NCBI GenBank assembly: GCA_046482545.1
Contig: JAWOEX010000028.1
Span: 224,001-288,000, forward strand
Length of the DNA stretch: 64,000 nucleotides
Reading direction: 5' to 3'
Source: Candidatus Thorarchaeota archaeon
GTDB lineage: Archaea; Asgardarchaeota; Thorarchaeia; Thorarchaeales; Thorarchaeaceae
Part shown: positions 9,601 to 61,831 of the stretch, in pieces
Layout: each line of letters begins with the position of its first letter
How positions within the stretch are numbered: the first letter of the stretch is position 1
Position numbers and translations under genes: made by a program
The notes under the pieces: model-generated
The model's input: only the letters and a program-made list of their open reading frames with translations
What the model was told of the DNA's origin: nothing
Databases searched by the model: none

Positions 9601-10106
9601 GGCACCGGTCTTTCGGAACGTCAGTGTTCGAATATATCGTCAATCATATCGCCTCACAGGGAGAGAGCACATCCGTGTCAGTAGCCAGGGGTGCTGGTTT
9701 GGCTTGTAAGTGACATTTCCTCACCCATCTTTCAAAGGCAAAAGTATTCATCCTGTACAAGACAGTTGCGCCGAGTGCACTATCTCTCTAACAACACGAA
9801 ATTCCTTGTTGCTCTGCGTTATCACATCCTCGTAGGCCGACACGAACTCCACCGCATCAACCTCCTCTTGCTGGAACATCGCTGCAATGGCGGAATGACG
9901 AGACTAACCACGCTGTAATCAAGCACCTCGTAGCCGGGGCGTTCCGAAGCCCGGTACATAGCGTTTGGGACGTAGGCTTCGCTGATCTCGATAGGATTCC
10001 CAAGTACGTCATCGACGCTCTTCTGTTTTAGTTTCACGTAGAACGAAACGAGCGGCCTCATAACCGATGTCTGTCTTTATCTTGAGACAGCCTGAGACCA
10101 AGGTCC
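9601..10106 (-). ncRNA. Candidate large (~500 nt) structured non-coding RNA of unknown class
   Basis: TATA TTTATATA at 10144-10137. 5' GGACC-TT-GGTCT pairs with 3' AGACC-GGT-G-CC. More than 10 nested helices; their mismatches read as G-U wobbles only on the minus strand. Confidence 0.7.
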
Positions 10107-10653: not shown

Positions 10654-12240
10654 GTGGTGCGCGTAGTAACTCTGGATTGGTTAAGCAATCTAGAACTAAC
10701 TGAGCCGGAGCCATATTGGTTCAGAGATGAAAGGCTCTACGCTGGCATCAACTCTGCTCGTTTCGAAGACAATCTTAATTGGGCCGAATTCGAAAAATAC
10801 ATGGGTCTCCAACCTGCTCCAGATGAGTCGTCGAATGATGTAGTGGCGCGAAATACATCTGAATCACAGCAAGGCGTGTTAAGACTTCACAGCTCTGAAC
10901 AGTTGAATCTATCAATTGATAAAAGCGAACTGAGATACCTAATTCGTCGTCTACGGCATTTCATCCATGAAAAATCCCCGCAACAGTATCTTAATGAAGC
11001 ACCCGGGCTAGATATTCTCAGTAGGGGAATCATTGCACTACACGAGTATGCGAAGTTTTGCGGACAGAGTTTGAACTGGCAAGCTGCTCTTGAGAACGTG
11101 GCGACCCTCGACAAGTTAGCAGAGCTAGATTATACTGGATTTGCGCGAACAGACTGGTCTAGGTGTGATTTGTTACCGGACGCTGTAGCCGAGTATCGGA
11201 GCAAGCCGCTATTACACGAGCTAAGGCATTCCTTCATTTCACTTCAACATCCTGTGCTAACAAAAATATGTGAGGCCCTTTGGAGAAATGAAGAATACAT
11301 AGGCATAACAAACAACTTCGTGAGAGAAGAGACAGGATGTACTAAACGAGAGGCTAGCCGCTACTCAGAAGAGCTTTCTATGCTTATGACCGAGAGATGC
11401 ATACCTGAAATCGCCACCTTAGGCCTGAGATACAGATCTATTCTAACAGCTAACCTCAGGCCAAGAATTTGGAACGGCGGTCTTGTACGAGCCTATGAAG
11501 TGGCGAATTCAAATTATCCTGGCTTCTTTCTCTACGTTGAACCTCGAGACAGCAATGGGCCTAGGAAAGGTGTTCTCCAAGAAAATGCCTTCCATTTCAC
11601 TGCGACTCGTGGAGTGCTGTCCTTCCGGCTTGACATGTGGGACGGAAAGAATTGGGTTTTTGAGCCATGGAAACCAAAAAATCAAGCTATCGATGGTCGA
11701 AAAGAAAGGTGGCTGTTGAAGGAGTTCAATACAAAAGAGGAAAATAATGCGCTAACTCCCCGGGAAGCAGTGCTCTTAGGTATTTTGTGGTCTCATCGAG
11801 GTGATGAGTCTTCAAGAAGAGACCTGTTAGAACGTTTGGAGTTTCCTGTTCGTTCCGCAAGACACTATCGAGAAAAGCTGGAGAAGAAGGGTGCATTCCA
11901 GATTTGTCAGCATCCCAAGCTGTGCTTTAGTGGGTTAAGTGATGGCATCCTTCTCGCTGTGACAGGATATGACGATATAGAGGATTTGCGTGATTACATC
12001 CTTTCACTTGCCCCTTATTGCGTAATCTACTTCAACAAGCAAGAGGATTCTCTTTGGGCTCTAATGAGGGTACCCCGCTGGCGTTCTGATCTCTTACGAG
12101 AACTGATGATAGAATGCATTGGCAAAGACACTCCTCAGTACCAAGTTGGTAGGATTCTAGAAGAAAACCGATACGCCATGACCCTTACCAGCAGACTCCA
12201 TGACGACAGTAGTGGTTCCTTTGCCAATCCCTGGACTTGA
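10654..12240 (+). CDS. Large putative regulator with two Lrp/AsnC-like (wHTH + RAM-like) units
   Basis: Two HTH-like segments, each followed by an Lrp-type P...GL linker (ERCIPEIATLGLRY; LTPREAVLLGIL...HPKLCFSGLSDGILL). Fold assignment by eye. Confidence 0.6.
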   Translation: MVRVVTLDWLSNLELTEPEPYWFRDERLYAGINSARFEDNLNWAEFEKYMGLQPAPDESSNDVVARNTSESQQGVLRLHSSEQLNLSIDKSELRYLIRRLRHFIHEKSPQQYLNEAPGLDILSRGIIALHEYAKFCGQSLNWQAALENVATLDKLAELDYTGFARTDWSRCDLLPDAVAEYRSKPLLHELRHSFISLQHPVLTKICEALWRNEEYIGITNNFVREETGCTKREASRYSEELSMLMTERCIPEIATLGLRYRSILTANLRPRIWNGGLVRAYEVANSNYPGFFLYVEPRDSNGPRKGVLQENAFHFTATRGVLSFRLDMWDGKNWVFEPWKPKNQAIDGRKERWLLKEFNTKEENNALTPREAVLLGILWSHRGDESSRRDLLERLEFPVRSARHYREKLEKKGAFQICQHPKLCFSGLSDGILLAVTGYDDIEDLRDYILSLAPYCVIYFNKQEDSLWALMRVPRWRSDLLRELMIECIGKDTPQYQVGRILEENRYAMTLTSRLHDDSSGSFANPWT

Positions 12241-12242
12241 AT

Positions 12243-12274
12243 ACAAAAGAAGAAGAGGCCGGAATACCGGCCCC
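12243..12274 (-). terminator. Hairpin + U-rich terminator after the micropeptide gene
   Basis: Minus strand GGGGCCGG-TATT-CCGGCCTC followed by TTCTTCTTTTGT. Confidence 0.75.
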
Positions 12275-12288
12275 TGTTAATCTATTAA

Positions 12289-12321
12289 TTACCATGGTAC
12301 ATCTGGCCAATCAGGGATCAT
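12289..12321 (-). CDS. 10-aa micropeptide MIPDWPDVPW
   Basis: ATG ATC CCT GAT TGG CCA GAT GTA CCA TGG TAA. SD GAGGTG (12335-12330) lies 8 nt upstream and a terminator hairpin starts 14 nt downstream. Confidence 0.7.
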   Translation of the reverse strand: MIPDWPDVPW

Positions 12322-12634
12322 TCGTTTTTCACCTCTGTTATTGTATTCCTCATACAATCTAATTGTAGCCCAGAGGGTTTGTTATCCCCATCTCCAGATA
12401 TGGCAAGCAAATGGACCAGAATCCATGAAAATACGACCAGTATCGATGATGATAACATACGGATTGTACTATGACCTTTTATGGGATCTACAGGTACTAT
12501 CTAGATTCATCAGTGAAAAGGACTATCGAAGTCTAAGTTTTCGAAATCGGAGCACTCAAAAAAACCAAGTAAAGATATTCTGCACTTTACTCGAGAAAGA
12601 AGATTTTCTACCCGTTCTCCATTCTCTACTTTTC

Positions 12635-14554
12635 CTACAATCTTTGTTGTGTAAGAAGCTCCGAAGTATCGGTATCCCAATTTCCATCATCTTTCAGTAA
12701 TCTACGAAAGAAATCTGATCGATATGCTCTGAATGCTGTTGCTGGCACCATGCTTATTTGTGCATCAATACTCGAAATCGATTCTGAAATCTTTTCTCTG
12801 TTTTCGTGACTGATGCGTGCAAGAGCATAACCATGAGTTCTATTGCGCTCCAGAAACACCTGGCAGGTTGGCAGCGATTCCAGCAATGCCGCCAACAGAG
12901 AGCAGGTGGTCTTCTCATCGCCACGGAGTTCTAAGAATATGCTTTTGAGACCGATGATGCTCACTCTATAGCCAATGTCAATCGCTTCTTGGCTGCGAAG
13001 CGATTCAAGGCATTCCTTTATCGTTTCTTGGTTTATTTCTGTCCCTGGAATGCCTGCAGAAAGTTCCATCTCAGCAAGCCAGCCTCTTGATACAGCATAA
13101 TCAAGGATGTTAGCCTCGGTAGGACTAGGTGTTTTCATTACACCATTCATACTGTCTCCGAACCGAGCTCTCAAGTCATCCACGGAGGTCATTTCTCTAG
13201 ATTTGAATCTCTTCATATCTAGTTTCCAATGGTCTTGTTCCGGATCGTAAAGATGGTAATTCTGTTGCGATGCTGAATAGGCAATCATGCGGGTGCTCGG
13301 AATATGTCTCTTAACCTGTTGGGCTGCGATCGGCGGCATCACCATATGGTGAAAGTATAGCGGATGTTTATCGGTCCCGTCTATTCGAACTATGAACCGA
13401 AGATACTTGTGCGGCCAACGATATGCTCTCCCCAAGTAGACAATTTCCTGTAATCCGAAAGCAGCGGTCCTGACATGCGGCCATAGCCTGAGTCCCCTTG
13501 TCAATGACATCATCCGTTGGAGCCAGGACTTCCATGAATGTCGTGCTTTTGTACGACTGATAGGAAGAGAGGTTATGATTTCTTTTGTTTTGTTGAGTTT
13601 CTTAGCTATGGTAATCACATTTTCAGGTTGGTCATACGTCCTTCGCACATAGGATAGAAACCTAGTCCATGGTTGTTCCTCAACTTCTTCAGGTGGATTA
13701 GAGCCAAGAAGAGGTAATTGGCCAGCCTCAGCTTGCCACATGAATCGTACATACGGGAAATTCGGTATTTTAGAACCTAGGCGAAGATAGTAATTCTTGA
13801 GCAATGCAAGAAACAGGGGTTTGTCTTGAAATCGTGGGAAAAAATCAAGGGGATCCTCTGTGGGTCTGCCAAGACATGTATAAGCAAGAAAAGCCATGAG
13901 TTGCTCACGAATATCTTCTGGCCATTGAGGAGGAACAACTCCATTGAGACATTTCTTTAGTGTCTCCCCCACCAGGTTCACTCGCACACCATGCGTAATG
14001 CGCGCAAGACATTCCCAGTCCGGACGAGGATTATTGAGTATTGAAATCGGATTAATATCCGTTTCAATCCGTGACATTCCCTTCCGCCACAACGCAGCAT
14101 CGCTTTGATAGCGAAAAGGACCGGCCTCATAGTGCTCAATTGTATGAGCTTGGACTAGGTTCCCGTCTTGCACGACAGCAAGATAATACTTCTTTGAGCC
14201 CTCGATAGCATGCAGAAAGAAGGTAGCTGTATCATTACCGTACAGCCATCTGGGATACCATAGATTGGTATCCTCGGGATAAATCCTGGCTTCAATAGCC
14301 TCATTGAGGAGACGAGCAAATACGCCCTTGCGCGAAAGCACCGGTTCAAGGCGAATGAGAAATTCCTCGCCCTGCTGCACGACAGTATTACCTTCCTCGT
14401 CAAGAATCGCTTCTTTGGCCAGCTTGACCCGAGCACCTGAACAAATCTCCTCACCTGAATTCAACTGAACGAATGGTCCGTTTACTTTCCAAGAGATCTT
14501 CGCCTGGTGCCAATCATGGTCGAGTTGAATGAGGACATCCCAAGACTCTACCAC
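12635..14554 (-). CDS. Large putative regulator with C-terminal Lrp/AsnC-like wHTH-RAM unit(s)
   Basis: PHVRTAAFGLQEIVYL and PSPTEANILD...LESLRSQEAIDIGYRVSIIGLKSIFLEL...LPTCQVF...GYALARI parallel the C-terminal half of the convergent 528-aa protein. GGAGATGAG SD-like sequence upstream. Confidence 0.6.
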   Translation of the reverse strand: MVESWDVLIQLDHDWHQAKISWKVNGPFVQLNSGEEICSGARVKLAKEAILDEEGNTVVQQGEEFLIRLEPVLSRKGVFARLLNEAIEARIYPEDTNLWYPRWLYGNDTATFFLHAIEGSKKYYLAVVQDGNLVQAHTIEHYEAGPFRYQSDAALWRKGMSRIETDINPISILNNPRPDWECLARITHGVRVNLVGETLKKCLNGVVPPQWPEDIREQLMAFLAYTCLGRPTEDPLDFFPRFQDKPLFLALLKNYYLRLGSKIPNFPYVRFMWQAEAGQLPLLGSNPPEEVEEQPWTRFLSYVRRTYDQPENVITIAKKLNKTKEIITSLPISRTKARHSWKSWLQRMMSLTRGLRLWPHVRTAAFGLQEIVYLGRAYRWPHKYLRFIVRIDGTDKHPLYFHHMVMPPIAAQQVKRHIPSTRMIAYSASQQNYHLYDPEQDHWKLDMKRFKSREMTSVDDLRARFGDSMNGVMKTPSPTEANILDYAVSRGWLAEMELSAGIPGTEINQETIKECLESLRSQEAIDIGYRVSIIGLKSIFLELRGDEKTTCSLLAALLESLPTCQVFLERNRTHGYALARISHENREKISESISSIDAQISMVPATAFRAYRSDFFRRLLKDDGNWDTDTSELLTQQRL

Positions 14555-20644: not shown

Positions 20645-21520
20645 ATGGGCAAATATCGTTACTCTACGATTTTGATCCTTTGGTTTCTGCTCTCCATGTT
20701 TAGCATACCGCCCACCCAGAAAGCTTCTGCTGATATTATCGTATCATCAGAGGGGGACGGAGGACTACCGTATCCGTTGCTCACAAACGCTAGCATGCCT
20801 GAAGCGGACGTTGAGATTAACATGTCATGTACAAGAACCGCTCCCAAGCAAGTGCGATATGACATCAACATGACCGCCTCTTTTCTGGTTTTCTCTCCAT
20901 ACTCACAGAATGCCACGATAGCTTTCGTCTTGCCTTCACCTCCCTTAGGACCTTCCACTACCACAGATGAGTGTAGTGCGGACGTCTTGGTTGACGAAAA
21001 AGACTTGGATTTCGAACGTGTAGAATGGGAACAACTCAACGTGTCTTAGGGTCTAAACGAATCTGAATGGTATTGGGCAGGAAACCCCGAGTGTTTGGTT
21101 TTCAATATGAGCCTTGAAGAGAATAGCCCTTCTCAAATCAAGGTAACTACTGAAATAGTGATTTCAACAGGTACAACTGCCTTTGCCTATAGTTACCATG
21201 TTGGTACTGCAAGGACTTGGAGTGGCGATACATATGAGACTCTGACAATTTCTGTTAATGATAACGTGGGATTTGTCAATCAAGGCTTCTATCCTGAACA
21301 GAATCTCTCTACAACGAGGGATGAGCCCACCATCACAGGCTCTTGGGAATTCAATATATCTGAATTCATTTACGAATCTGTAGGTTTCAGTTGTCAACAT
21401 TGGGAAGTGTCAAGATACCGACCACATCCAGATTGGTTCCTTGTTTACTCAACATATCTTGGCCTTGGGGTTCTTGTGATAATACTTGTCTATAAGGGAA
21501 TTCAGAGATATTATAGCTAG
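20645..21520 (+). pseudogene. Secreted, C-terminally membrane-anchored protein interrupted by one in-frame TAG (21047-21049)
   Basis: ORFs 20645-21049 and 21095-21520 are in the same frame. Readthrough gives ...QLNVS*GLNESEWYWAGNPECLVFNM..., joining a signal peptide to a C-terminal TM. Confidence 0.75.
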
Positions 21521-37433: not shown

Positions 37434-37724
37434 ATGAGCATCGTCATTAATTACTTCGGGATTCTTGCTTCGAAGATGTCAACAACCAATGATTCAGTCG
37501 AACTGTCCAGCGGAGTCAGAATCAGAGATGTCTTTTGTCATCTCATTGAGAAGCACAGGGAGGTCTTCAAGACATACATTTACAATCCCGAGGGAGAGAA
37601 GATGAATGGAGATGTCTTGGTAAATGTCAATGATGTCCCGATTCTCCAGAAGCAGGGAATAGATACCATTTTGAATGACGGGGATCAGATTGACATCCTC
37701 CCCATCTTTGCGGGTGGCGGCTAG
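37434..37724 (+). CDS. MoaD/SAMP-like ubiquitin-like protein
   Basis: GAGGTG SD; ends LPIFAGGG; divergent from the E1-like gene. Confidence 0.9.
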   Translation: MSIVINYFGILASKMSTTNDSVELSSGVRIRDVFCHLIEKHREVFKTYIYNPEGEKMNGDVLVNVNDVPILQKQGIDTILNDGDQIDILPIFAGGG

Positions 37725-58965: not shown

Positions 58966-59919
58966 ATGGGCCACAAGAAGAAGAACGGCAAGAAAAAGTC
59001 TGACAAAGATGAGGAGTTCACATGTCCGGAATGTGGAGGACATAAGCTCATAGAAGATCTAGAAAAGGGCGAGAAAATCTGTGCATCCTGTGGACTGGTA
59101 ATAAGCGAAAGGCACATGGATACTGGCCCAGAGTGGCGAGCGTTTACTTCAGAAGAACGGAAAACCCGTGCGAGAGCAGGGGCACCGGCTGATTATACAA
59201 AGCATGACAAAGGTCTCTCCACTATGATTGATTGGCGCGATCGTGATGCTCAGGGGAAAGGCTTCTCGGCGAAAAGACGTTCTGAAATCTACAGACTTCG
59301 AAGATGGCAAATTCGGACGAGAGTTCACAGCTCAGTAGAACGAAATCTAGCTCAAGCAATGAGCGAGCTCGATAGACTCGCATCCCAATTGAAGCTAAGC
59401 AAGGGTATAAAGGAACTGGCGGCTCTTCTATATAGGAAACTCATTGTGGAGAAGCTGATTCGTAGCAGGTCTATTGAGGCCATGGTAGCCGCAGCAGCCT
59501 ATGCTGCGTGTAGACTCAGAGAGGCTCCGCGATCGCTTGATGAAATTGCGAGAGAATCACGAATAAGCAGAAAGAAAATCGGACGCCATTATAGGCTCTT
59601 GGTTGAAAAACTGAACCTGCGAATGCCCATATCGGATCCTGTGAACTATGTGCCTCGATTGATAGCCGAATTGAATCTTCCAAGCACAGTTCACGAGAAG
59701 GTCATGGAAATCCTCGAGGCGGCAAAGAAGAAACACAGCCTTGTAACAGGAAAAGACCCGAGGGGGCTGGCTGCTGCAGCAATCTACATAGCTTCCATTA
59801 TTGTGGATCACAAGGCTACACAGCGAGAAATTGCTGCTGCCGCAGGAGTTACAGAGGTCACGGTCCGCAATAGATACAAAGAACTTGTAGAGAAGCTGAA
59901 TATCTCGCTGAACCCTTAG
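58966..59919 (+). CDS. tfb: Transcription initiation factor IIB (copy 1)
   Basis: CPECG/CASCG Zn ribbon, GPEWRAF, HDKGLST, GVTEVTVRNRYKE. Confidence 0.96.
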   Translation: MGHKKKNGKKKSDKDEEFTCPECGGHKLIEDLEKGEKICASCGLVISERHMDTGPEWRAFTSEERKTRARAGAPADYTKHDKGLSTMIDWRDRDAQGKGFSAKRRSEIYRLRRWQIRTRVHSSVERNLAQAMSELDRLASQLKLSKGIKELAALLYRKLIVEKLIRSRSIEAMVAAAAYAACRLREAPRSLDEIARESRISRKKIGRHYRLLVEKLNLRMPISDPVNYVPRLIAELNLPSTVHEKVMEILEAAKKKHSLVTGKDPRGLAAAAIYIASIIVDHKATQREIAAAAGVTEVTVRNRYKELVEKLNISLNP

Positions 59920-60877: not shown

Positions 60878-61831
60878 ATGGCAGCTAACACAAAATCGGT
60901 AGAGAAGAAAAGAAAAGGGTCAGCTGAATTCACGTGCCCAGAGTGTGGTGGGCATGATGTAGTGCAGGACCTAGAGAAAGGGGAGAAGATTTGCGCGACA
61001 TGTGGCCTTGTAGTCAGCGATCACAGAATCGACAAGGGGCCGGACTGGCGAGCTTTCACTACAGAAGAAAGAAATGCCAGAGCAAGAGCAGGAGCTCCCA
61101 CTAACTACACTATCCACGATAAGGGACTCAGTACAATGATTGACTGGAGAGATCTTGACTCCTCTGGGAAGCGATTCTCAGCTAAAAAGCGCGCACAGAT
61201 TTACAGACTTAGAAAATGGCAGATTCGAACACGGGTACATAGCTCCGTTGACCGAAACCTTGCACAGGCTATGACCGAACTAGACCGGTTAACCTCACAG
61301 CTTGGCTTGAAGAAGAGCATCAAGGAGCTTGCGGCGCTCCTATATAGAAAACTCATCGTAAAACGGCTCGTGAGGAGCAGATCCATCGATGCCATGGTTG
61401 GAGCTGCAATCTATGCAGCGTGCAGGTTGAGAGAAGCTCCGCGGTCTCTTGAAGAAATCGCAGATCATTCACGTGTCAGCAAGAAGAAGATCGGCAAGCA
61501 CTATCGTCTATTGGTACGCAAGCTTAAACTCAAGATGCCGATTTCAACGCCCTCAAATTATGTTCCGCGTTTTATCACCGAGCTTGACTTGCCCGGACAT
61601 GTGCAGGAGAAGGTTCTTGAAATCCTTGACGCGGCACAGCAGAAAAAGCGGTTGATTACTGGTCGTGACCCACGAGGGCTTGCGGCTGCTGCGATCTATA
61701 TCGCTTCGATTGTCACCGACCATCGTGTGACACAACGCGATATCGCCTCTGCTGCTGGCGTGACTGAAGTGACTGTTCGGAATAGGTACAAAGAGCTCGT
61801 TGACGAACTGAACATCAGGATGACCCCGTAA
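60878..61831 (+). CDS. tfb: Transcription initiation factor IIB (copy 2)
   Basis: CPECG/CATCG, GPDWRAF, HDKGLST, GVTEVTVRNRYKE. Confidence 0.96.
   Translation: MAANTKSVEKKRKGSAEFTCPECGGHDVVQDLEKGEKICATCGLVVSDHRIDKGPDWRAFTTEERNARARAGAPTNYTIHDKGLSTMIDWRDLDSSGKRFSAKKRAQIYRLRKWQIRTRVHSSVDRNLAQAMTELDRLTSQLGLKKSIKELAALLYRKLIVKRLVRSRSIDAMVGAAIYAACRLREAPRSLEEIADHSRVSKKKIGKHYRLLVRKLKLKMPISTPSNYVPRFITELDLPGHVQEKVLEILDAAQQKKRLITGRDPRGLAAAAIYIASIVTDHRVTQRDIASAAGVTEVTVRNRYKELVDELNIRMTP

Follow-up and report, generated by a model that had tools for sequence, protein, structure and literature searches.

In a 64,000-nt stretch of the genome of a Candidatus Thorarchaeota archaeon (contig JAWOEX010000028.1, positions 224,001 to 288,000; hereafter the window), a ten-codon gene that encodes the peptide MIPDWPDVPW (12289-12321, minus strand) lies between the convergent genes of two large proteins related to Lrp regulators, here called A and B. 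In this work we conclude that this mini-gene is a real gene with selection acting on its peptide sequence, that the peptide is a member of a Thorarchaeota family of tiny Pro-rich peptides ending in Pro-Trp or Pro-Phe, and that its partner is protein B and not the convergent A/B pair. A first-pass annotation of this DNA had proposed a peptide cassette placed between two convergent regulators; a real peptide next to Lrp-fold paralogues was indeed found, but it follows B and not the pair. The reading that we favour, to which we give about an even chance, is that the Pro-rich peptide is a dedicated trans-acting ligand of B, with A as the DNA-binding partner, and that a recombination-type gene cluster is under their control.

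Read on the minus strand, the mini-gene comprises a Shine-Dalgarno (SD) sequence GAGGTG (12335-12330), an 8-nt spacer, an ATG at 12321 and a TAA that ends at 12289, as the first-pass annotation had described it, within a gap estimated then at about 390 bp and measured here as 394 nt from the stop of A (10654-12240, plus strand) to the stop of B (14554-12635, minus strand). As was also pointed out then, the same GAGGTG stands ahead of two further starts, near 37434 and 38540. The stop codon is followed by a GC-rich, terminator-like hairpin with a T-rich tail (12244-12275, minus polarity), likewise anticipated; this 9-bp hairpin (12275-12254) and its tail are the sole terminator call in the A/B gap and belong to the minus strand alone; the folding energy was -18.2 kcal/mol (z -3.7) for the minus-strand RNA versus -14.1 for the plus-strand RNA. 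No Rfam family matches the mini-gene region. About 160 nt upstream there is a TATA-like box (12476-12482, minus strand), which aligns with ATATAAAG, found at the same distance from a second copy of the gene described below; judging from this box, the mini-gene probably has its own promoter. The word AATAAAG occurs upstream of 12 of 39 family peptides (1.3 expected), a count obtained with a regular expression picked after the data were seen, which does not match the window copy's own box.

An indication of selection comes from the second, unlinked copy at C12:45008 (plus strand), which starts with TTG and encodes the identical peptide: six synonymous changes set the two copies apart, and none that replaces an amino acid (rough p 6e-5), and their flanks have diverged while the peptide remained unchanged. 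When 86 genomes were searched with a strict pattern of an SD plus ten codons, seven matches were obtained, each of them in this genus, and the reversed control had none; a looser pattern of SD plus open reading frame (ORF) gave 29 matches, some of them out of frame, versus two in the control. Matches in L098 and L101 fall inside genes for peptide-binding proteins and were discarded, and the DNA pattern for the exact peptide had no match in the metagenome contigs. Orthologues are present in G001, G002 and L152-L156; all the genus orthologues carry the SD, and a hairpin also follows the stop. In the same-genus genomes the A/B gap holds 10-11-mers, among them (M)DPEMPDQP[WF] and (M)APEMPDQPF, each with SD and hairpin, in agreement with the suggestion that homologous gaps would contain such a short ORF; further relatives, with the same signals, have MAPEKPTQPWMY and MLDPEIPGLPW. 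We infer that the mini-gene is translated. Contigs of a salt-lake metatranscriptome cover the region patchily at a depth of 2-8, and one of them spans 12058-12341 including the mini-gene; such contigs carry neither strand nor level and are possibly DNA, and they were excluded from the evidence.

In the catalogue of family peptides, all 44 end their core in Pro followed by Trp or Phe (44/44 at each position), counts which partly follow from the way the filter was built. Glu occupies position -3 in 31 of the 44, about ten carry residues beyond the Pro-Trp, and many members contain 2-4 tandem cores. Two orphan copies in this genome, at C22:114533 (plus strand; MIPEVPELPWIY) and the C12 site already mentioned, have the SD, the TATA-like box and the hairpin. 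The C22 site, flanked by an E1-alpha-like dehydrogenase gene and a gene for a methyltransferase, is syntenic in G001 and G002. At the B-linked site and at this unlinked site residue 2 is D in both G001 copies and A in both G002 copies; thus, the copies change together within a species. A possible further member, MMIPHRLTDPPW, with an SD, was seen in this genome (G000) at C9:325434 (minus strand), and in L086 and L092 peptides that end in PEWPW adjoin CARF/Csa3-like and Csa1 genes.

The neighbour with which the peptide travels was identified by comparing A and B loci. Of 31 B loci in genomes, 20 have a Pro-rich ORF ending in P..P[WF] at a distance of no more than 900 nt; in 15 of these it is upstream on the same strand, in three downstream on the same strand, and in two downstream on the opposite strand. 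In contrast, outside the genus a peptide occurs near A in at most one of 26 A loci. A metagenome set, which includes some near-duplicates and overlaps slightly with the genome set, gave an upstream peptide for 21 of 31 B genes versus 1.7% of shuffles. The presence of the peptide beside B and not beside A identifies B as its partner, and its varying position, together with the unlinked copies, indicates action in trans. In the commonest layout of the family, A and B are on one strand about 10 kb apart and the peptide is found 100-350 nt 5' of B; the usual gene order starts with the peptide and B, continues on the other strand with the gene of a 2600-aa surface protein and one or two small genes, and goes on to A and to FEN1-like and RadA-like genes. 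The convergent arrangement of A and B, present in this genus and in G017, is a rearrangement. In a quick tree of B, paralogous B genes of one genome are each accompanied by a different peptide, and similar peptides fall on the same B clades.

About a dozen tandem-Lrp-like genes are present in this genome, and the three loci that contain N-terminally extended members, namely the window locus, C2 and C44, each include a peptide. At C2:66782 (minus strand; also L113 and L189) the peptide MTDPGNPDPTPW is divergent from a pair of tandem-Lrp genes of 355 and 494 aa, and at C44:1050 (minus strand; also L114 and L159) the peptide MYHPPDDPHPIPPW is divergent from the gene of a 551-aa tandem-Lrp protein, which heads a type I-D-like cluster of the clustered regularly interspaced short palindromic repeats (CRISPR) system with an HD-domain protein and Csc2. 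Peptides of the C44 type, PP[DG]DPxPIPP[WF], accompany six of eight close orthologues of the C44 protein in several genera, and short P[ED]PxP[WFY] peptides of the C2 type occur at about 16 of 26 C2 loci (shuffles about 4%); no SD-led peptide was found at the short 355-400-aa members elsewhere or at the 453-aa member on C40. The C44 peptide of this genome is closer to the peptides of distant genera than to the genome's own C9 peptide. The expectation that variation of the peptide would track the receptor is thus borne out at the level of subfamilies. These subfamily-specific types are the best evidence for partner-specific recognition, which they suggest from sequence comparison; common descent of the cassette predicts the same pattern. 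Upstream of the C2 peptide (about 66890-67020, minus strand; also L192-L207) there is an unannotated ORF of 45-55 aa, strongly conserved in 11 loci, whose product has a hydrophobic helix and ends in QPPCEDPxP[FY]; this product may be a precursor with a leader or a protein with a docking tail.

A was found in 29 and B in 33 of the 36 genomes of the family and neither in any of the 24 other genomes of the phylum that were searched; B has no more than 175 representatives among 1.84 billion proteins. A (528 aa) is modelled with a helical N-domain followed by two units of helix-turn-helix (HTH) and RAM domain, and B (639 aa) with a beta-rich N-domain, a helical domain and two such Lrp-like units. 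BLASTP detected no similarity between them, but a profile comparison gave an alignment of 448 columns (E 2e-19, probability 99.2) that takes in the C-terminal motif D..G.(F/W) common to both, on which the first-pass annotation had remarked; on these grounds and on the models, A and B prove to be distant paralogues that share a predicted tandem HTH-RAM fold, so that the early recognition of HTH and RAM patterns in both neighbours holds. The AlphaFold2 models are confident (pLDDT 87 and 88 for A and B), and the best structural match of both is NirDL (Foldseek E 4e-7 and 8e-6; VIA Z 11.0 with 261 residues aligned and rmsd 5.6 for A, and 10.9 with 263 aligned and rmsd 5.5 for B), followed by single Lrp/AsnC regulators. 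The catalytic motif HxYxR of NirDL is nevertheless present in none of 30 A and in one of 62 B proteins, and in a weak alignment it falls on a His-free segment of B. Atlas neighbours are unnamed archaeal HTH_24/AsnC proteins; Pfam gave no TPR match in A or B, their C-terminal parts being modelled as HTH-RAM units, and neither Pfam nor NCBIfam gave a maturase match. The net charges of the HTH helices are +1.2 and +2.5 in A and +2.6 and -0.5 in B; those of the A family are mostly basic and look compatible with DNA, the second HTH of B is neutral to acidic, and its first HTH holds an unusual insert. A has a conserved [DN]PW tail of its own: its C-terminus is P[WF] in 25 of 30 members, and in at least 17 of 30 a second W..PW, which resembles the EPW end of the peptides, follows the first unit. 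In the N-terminal part of B, residues 108-174 form three strands and then three helices; the first 200 aa had no usable Atlas match and the alignments of the fold search stop short, which is no sign of a new fold.

A and B bracket or adjoin a cluster of RadA, FEN1, helicase and giant-surface-protein genes, and this linkage has been kept. In the favoured reading, the product of the mini-gene would be bound in trans by B, and B, probably together with its paralogue A, would act as a transcription regulator, the most likely target being this adjacent cluster for DNA exchange or repair. The invariant C-terminal Pro-[Trp/Phe] would serve as the anchor and the variable residues ahead of it as the specificity code; as the Lrp units of A each end in PW, the free peptide may mimic the A tail or compete with it. 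Several observations weigh against this reading. About one third of the B loci lack a peptide under the filter used, the tracking of peptides on the B tree is confounded by common descent, and a near-invariant His/Trp/Arg segment of B, A-H-R-W-P-H-x-H (two of whose His positions hold Tyr in the B of this genome), is possibly catalytic. The peptides beside CARF/Csa3-like genes, as well as the orphans, indicate that tandem-Lrp proteins are maybe not the sole partners, and the search for an operator motif upstream of the peptide genes returned only the TATA-like word. Furthermore, neither the acidic 10-mer nor any peptide of the catalogue has a signal peptide or hydrophobic leader, and no dedicated exporter was identified, which leaves a cell-to-cell version without a route. 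As the peptide carries no signal sequence, the odds of its being a ligand inside the cell are no lower than those of its being a quorum signal or pheromone: intracellular action is a serious possibility, short of probable, and passage between cells in the manner of a pheromone is unlikely. A prediction of the complex between a natural 40-aa two-core peptide and its cognate B (G031) scored 0.11 (mark 0.32) and is evidence neither way.

The systems closest to this cassette in general outline are the RRNPP systems (Rap-Phr, PlcR-PapR, Rgg-SHP, ComR-ComS, AimR-AimP, AloR-AloP), which are found in Bacillota and their phages, with multiple pairs per genome and orphans, and whose pro-peptides carry an export signal sequence (PMC7425212). 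Here too, a tiny peptide gene adjoins the gene of a large HTH protein, several pairs with their own peptide coexist in a genome and there are orphans; however, the partner is a tandem HTH-RAM protein and not a TPR protein, the host is an archaeon, and the peptides have an acidic Pro-rich core and multi-core forms and lack a signal sequence. The cassette thus looks RRNPP-like in its working, yet it is not an RRNPP system, given that it has neither TPR nor export signal. The HTH, linker and RAM fold is shared with the Lrp/AsnC (feast/famine) regulators, which are single units of 150 aa that bind free amino acids; we know of no dedicated peptide gene associated with them. Two HTH-RAM units per chain are also found in the siroheme decarboxylases NirDL and AhbA-AhbB (PDB 4ch7, 4czc, 4czd), with the catalytic motif HxYxR (PMC4145669); A and B, however, have 9-15% identity to these enzymes, carry extra N-terminal domains of 200-300 residues and neighbour recombination genes instead of haem genes, and for the missing motif a role as siroheme decarboxylase was rejected. 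For archaea, a 2025 paper lists only three earlier cases of quorum sensing (PMC12240190); in two of them the signal is unidentified and in the third it is a carboxy-acyl-homoserine lactone, so that no case pairs a known receptor with a peptide encoded by a gene. Our literature search on small peptides of Thorarchaeota and on peptide signals and ribosomally synthesized and post-translationally modified peptides (RiPPs) of Asgard archaea, whose coverage left out most subscription papers, returned nothing relevant. Judged by its anatomy, the cassette would be new, as it departs from the defining features of each known family tried.

Among the alternatives, the one that survives best, albeit improbable, is that the 10-mer is a minimal RiPP precursor, modified by B as an Lrp-fold enzyme akin to NirDL/AhbAB and/or by a linked GH3 acting on the terminal Trp/Phe carboxylate. 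It fits with an enzyme being the closest structure to A and B, with the conserved His residues of B, with the 2-4 tandem cores of many members and with the presence of GH3 genes, in 18 of 28 genomes, no more than 25 kb from A or B (in about nine as the immediate neighbour) and of a GH3 remnant in the window; on the other hand, A and B lack HxYxR, the B of this genome has Tyr for two of the conserved His, the 10-mers have no leader peptide, about ten of 44 peptides extend past the PW, and GH3 is found, too, in further families of the phylum, which lack A and B, and has been relocated in this genome. A general docking tail P..P[WF], through which the peptide would decoy another protein while the link to B only reflects regulation of the peptide gene by B, is rather doubtful: the orphans, the similar peptides by CARF/Csa3-like genes and the related ending of the 45-55-aa C2 protein favour it, but peptide types that are specific to a subfamily and accompany their tandem-Lrp partner from genus to genus fit direct recognition better. 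Still less probable is a peptide that would arrest the ribosome or serve as a leader, monitoring translation (through Pro-tRNA, aIF5A or Trp) and regulating in cis the gene that follows. The peptide is Pro-rich and Trp-ended, its gene mostly shares the strand of B and precedes it by 100-350 nt, a hairpin lying between the two, and arrest peptides that act at the stop codon exist, TnaC and PepNL being short ORFs with Pro/Trp near the stop (PMC11890864). Nevertheless, an attenuator was rejected at this locus, as in the first-pass annotation, because no gene follows on the strand of the mini-gene; the cassette is independent of orientation, in that several genera have it 3' of B or opposite to it and that in the C2 and C44 subfamilies it diverges from its partner; the distance from PW to the stop varies from 0 to 3 codons and internal repeats have no stop; and the species-specific identity of unlinked copies is unexpected for a metabolite sensor. 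Finally, a chance ORF by a bidirectional terminator, or a non-coding RNA, is largely refuted and very improbable, for despite a length of only ten codons, the purely synonymous divergence between copies with diverged flanks, the family-wide excess of SD-led ORFs over the control, the polarity of the terminator and the empty Rfam search all speak for a coding gene.

If the favoured reading is true, it would mean a new signalling chemistry in which an Lrp fold reads peptides, near the root of eukaryotes, with Asgard peptide-partner cassettes linked to loci for recombination and CRISPR; even if the peptide acts inside the cell or is a RiPP precursor, there would still be an unannotated gene class. 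A bolder proposal, speculative and unlikely to be correct in full, is that of Thorarchaeota pheromones: released, species-specific, Pro-rich P[WF] peptides would be received by N-terminally extended tandem-Lrp proteins as a receptor class of a new kind, in separate channels that switch on DNA exchange and, through C44, CRISPR-Cas. In bacteria, ComRS controls DNA uptake.

The head of the conserved recombination-type cluster occupies positions 1-8008 (minus strand) of the window, to the left of A, with RadA-like genes and an XPD-like helicase, and from synteny it is a candidate regulated operon of A and B. The next 19 kb of the contig, beyond the window, encode Hel308-like, FEN1-like and further RadA-like proteins and a 2597-aa Ig-repeat surface protein, and membrane proteins of no known kind are encoded in the same cluster. 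Family-wide, the cluster has at least four RadA-like genes, XPD-/Hel308-like helicases, a FEN1-like nuclease and an Ig-repeat/alpha-alpha-toroid protein (also in L112), and it is a candidate DNA-exchange system. Between this cluster and A there is the remnant of the GH3 acyl-adenylate ligase (amide ligase) gene (9647-10097, minus strand), an internally deleted pseudogene with the first 45 codons fused to the last 120; an intact copy is present on contig C31, and in G002 and L156 the gene is intact and adjoins A. GH3 belongs to the conserved genes of the A/B cluster. Elsewhere in the window, the 134- and 141-aa ORFs at 20645-21520 (plus strand) match a single 295-aa gene of G002 and are probably a split gene. 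Near-tandem 317-aa TFB-like paralogues, identified by a look at the sequence only, are encoded at 58966-59919 and 60878-61831 (plus strand), and in G011 and G031, too, a tandem TFB-like pair is found, immediately 5' of B.

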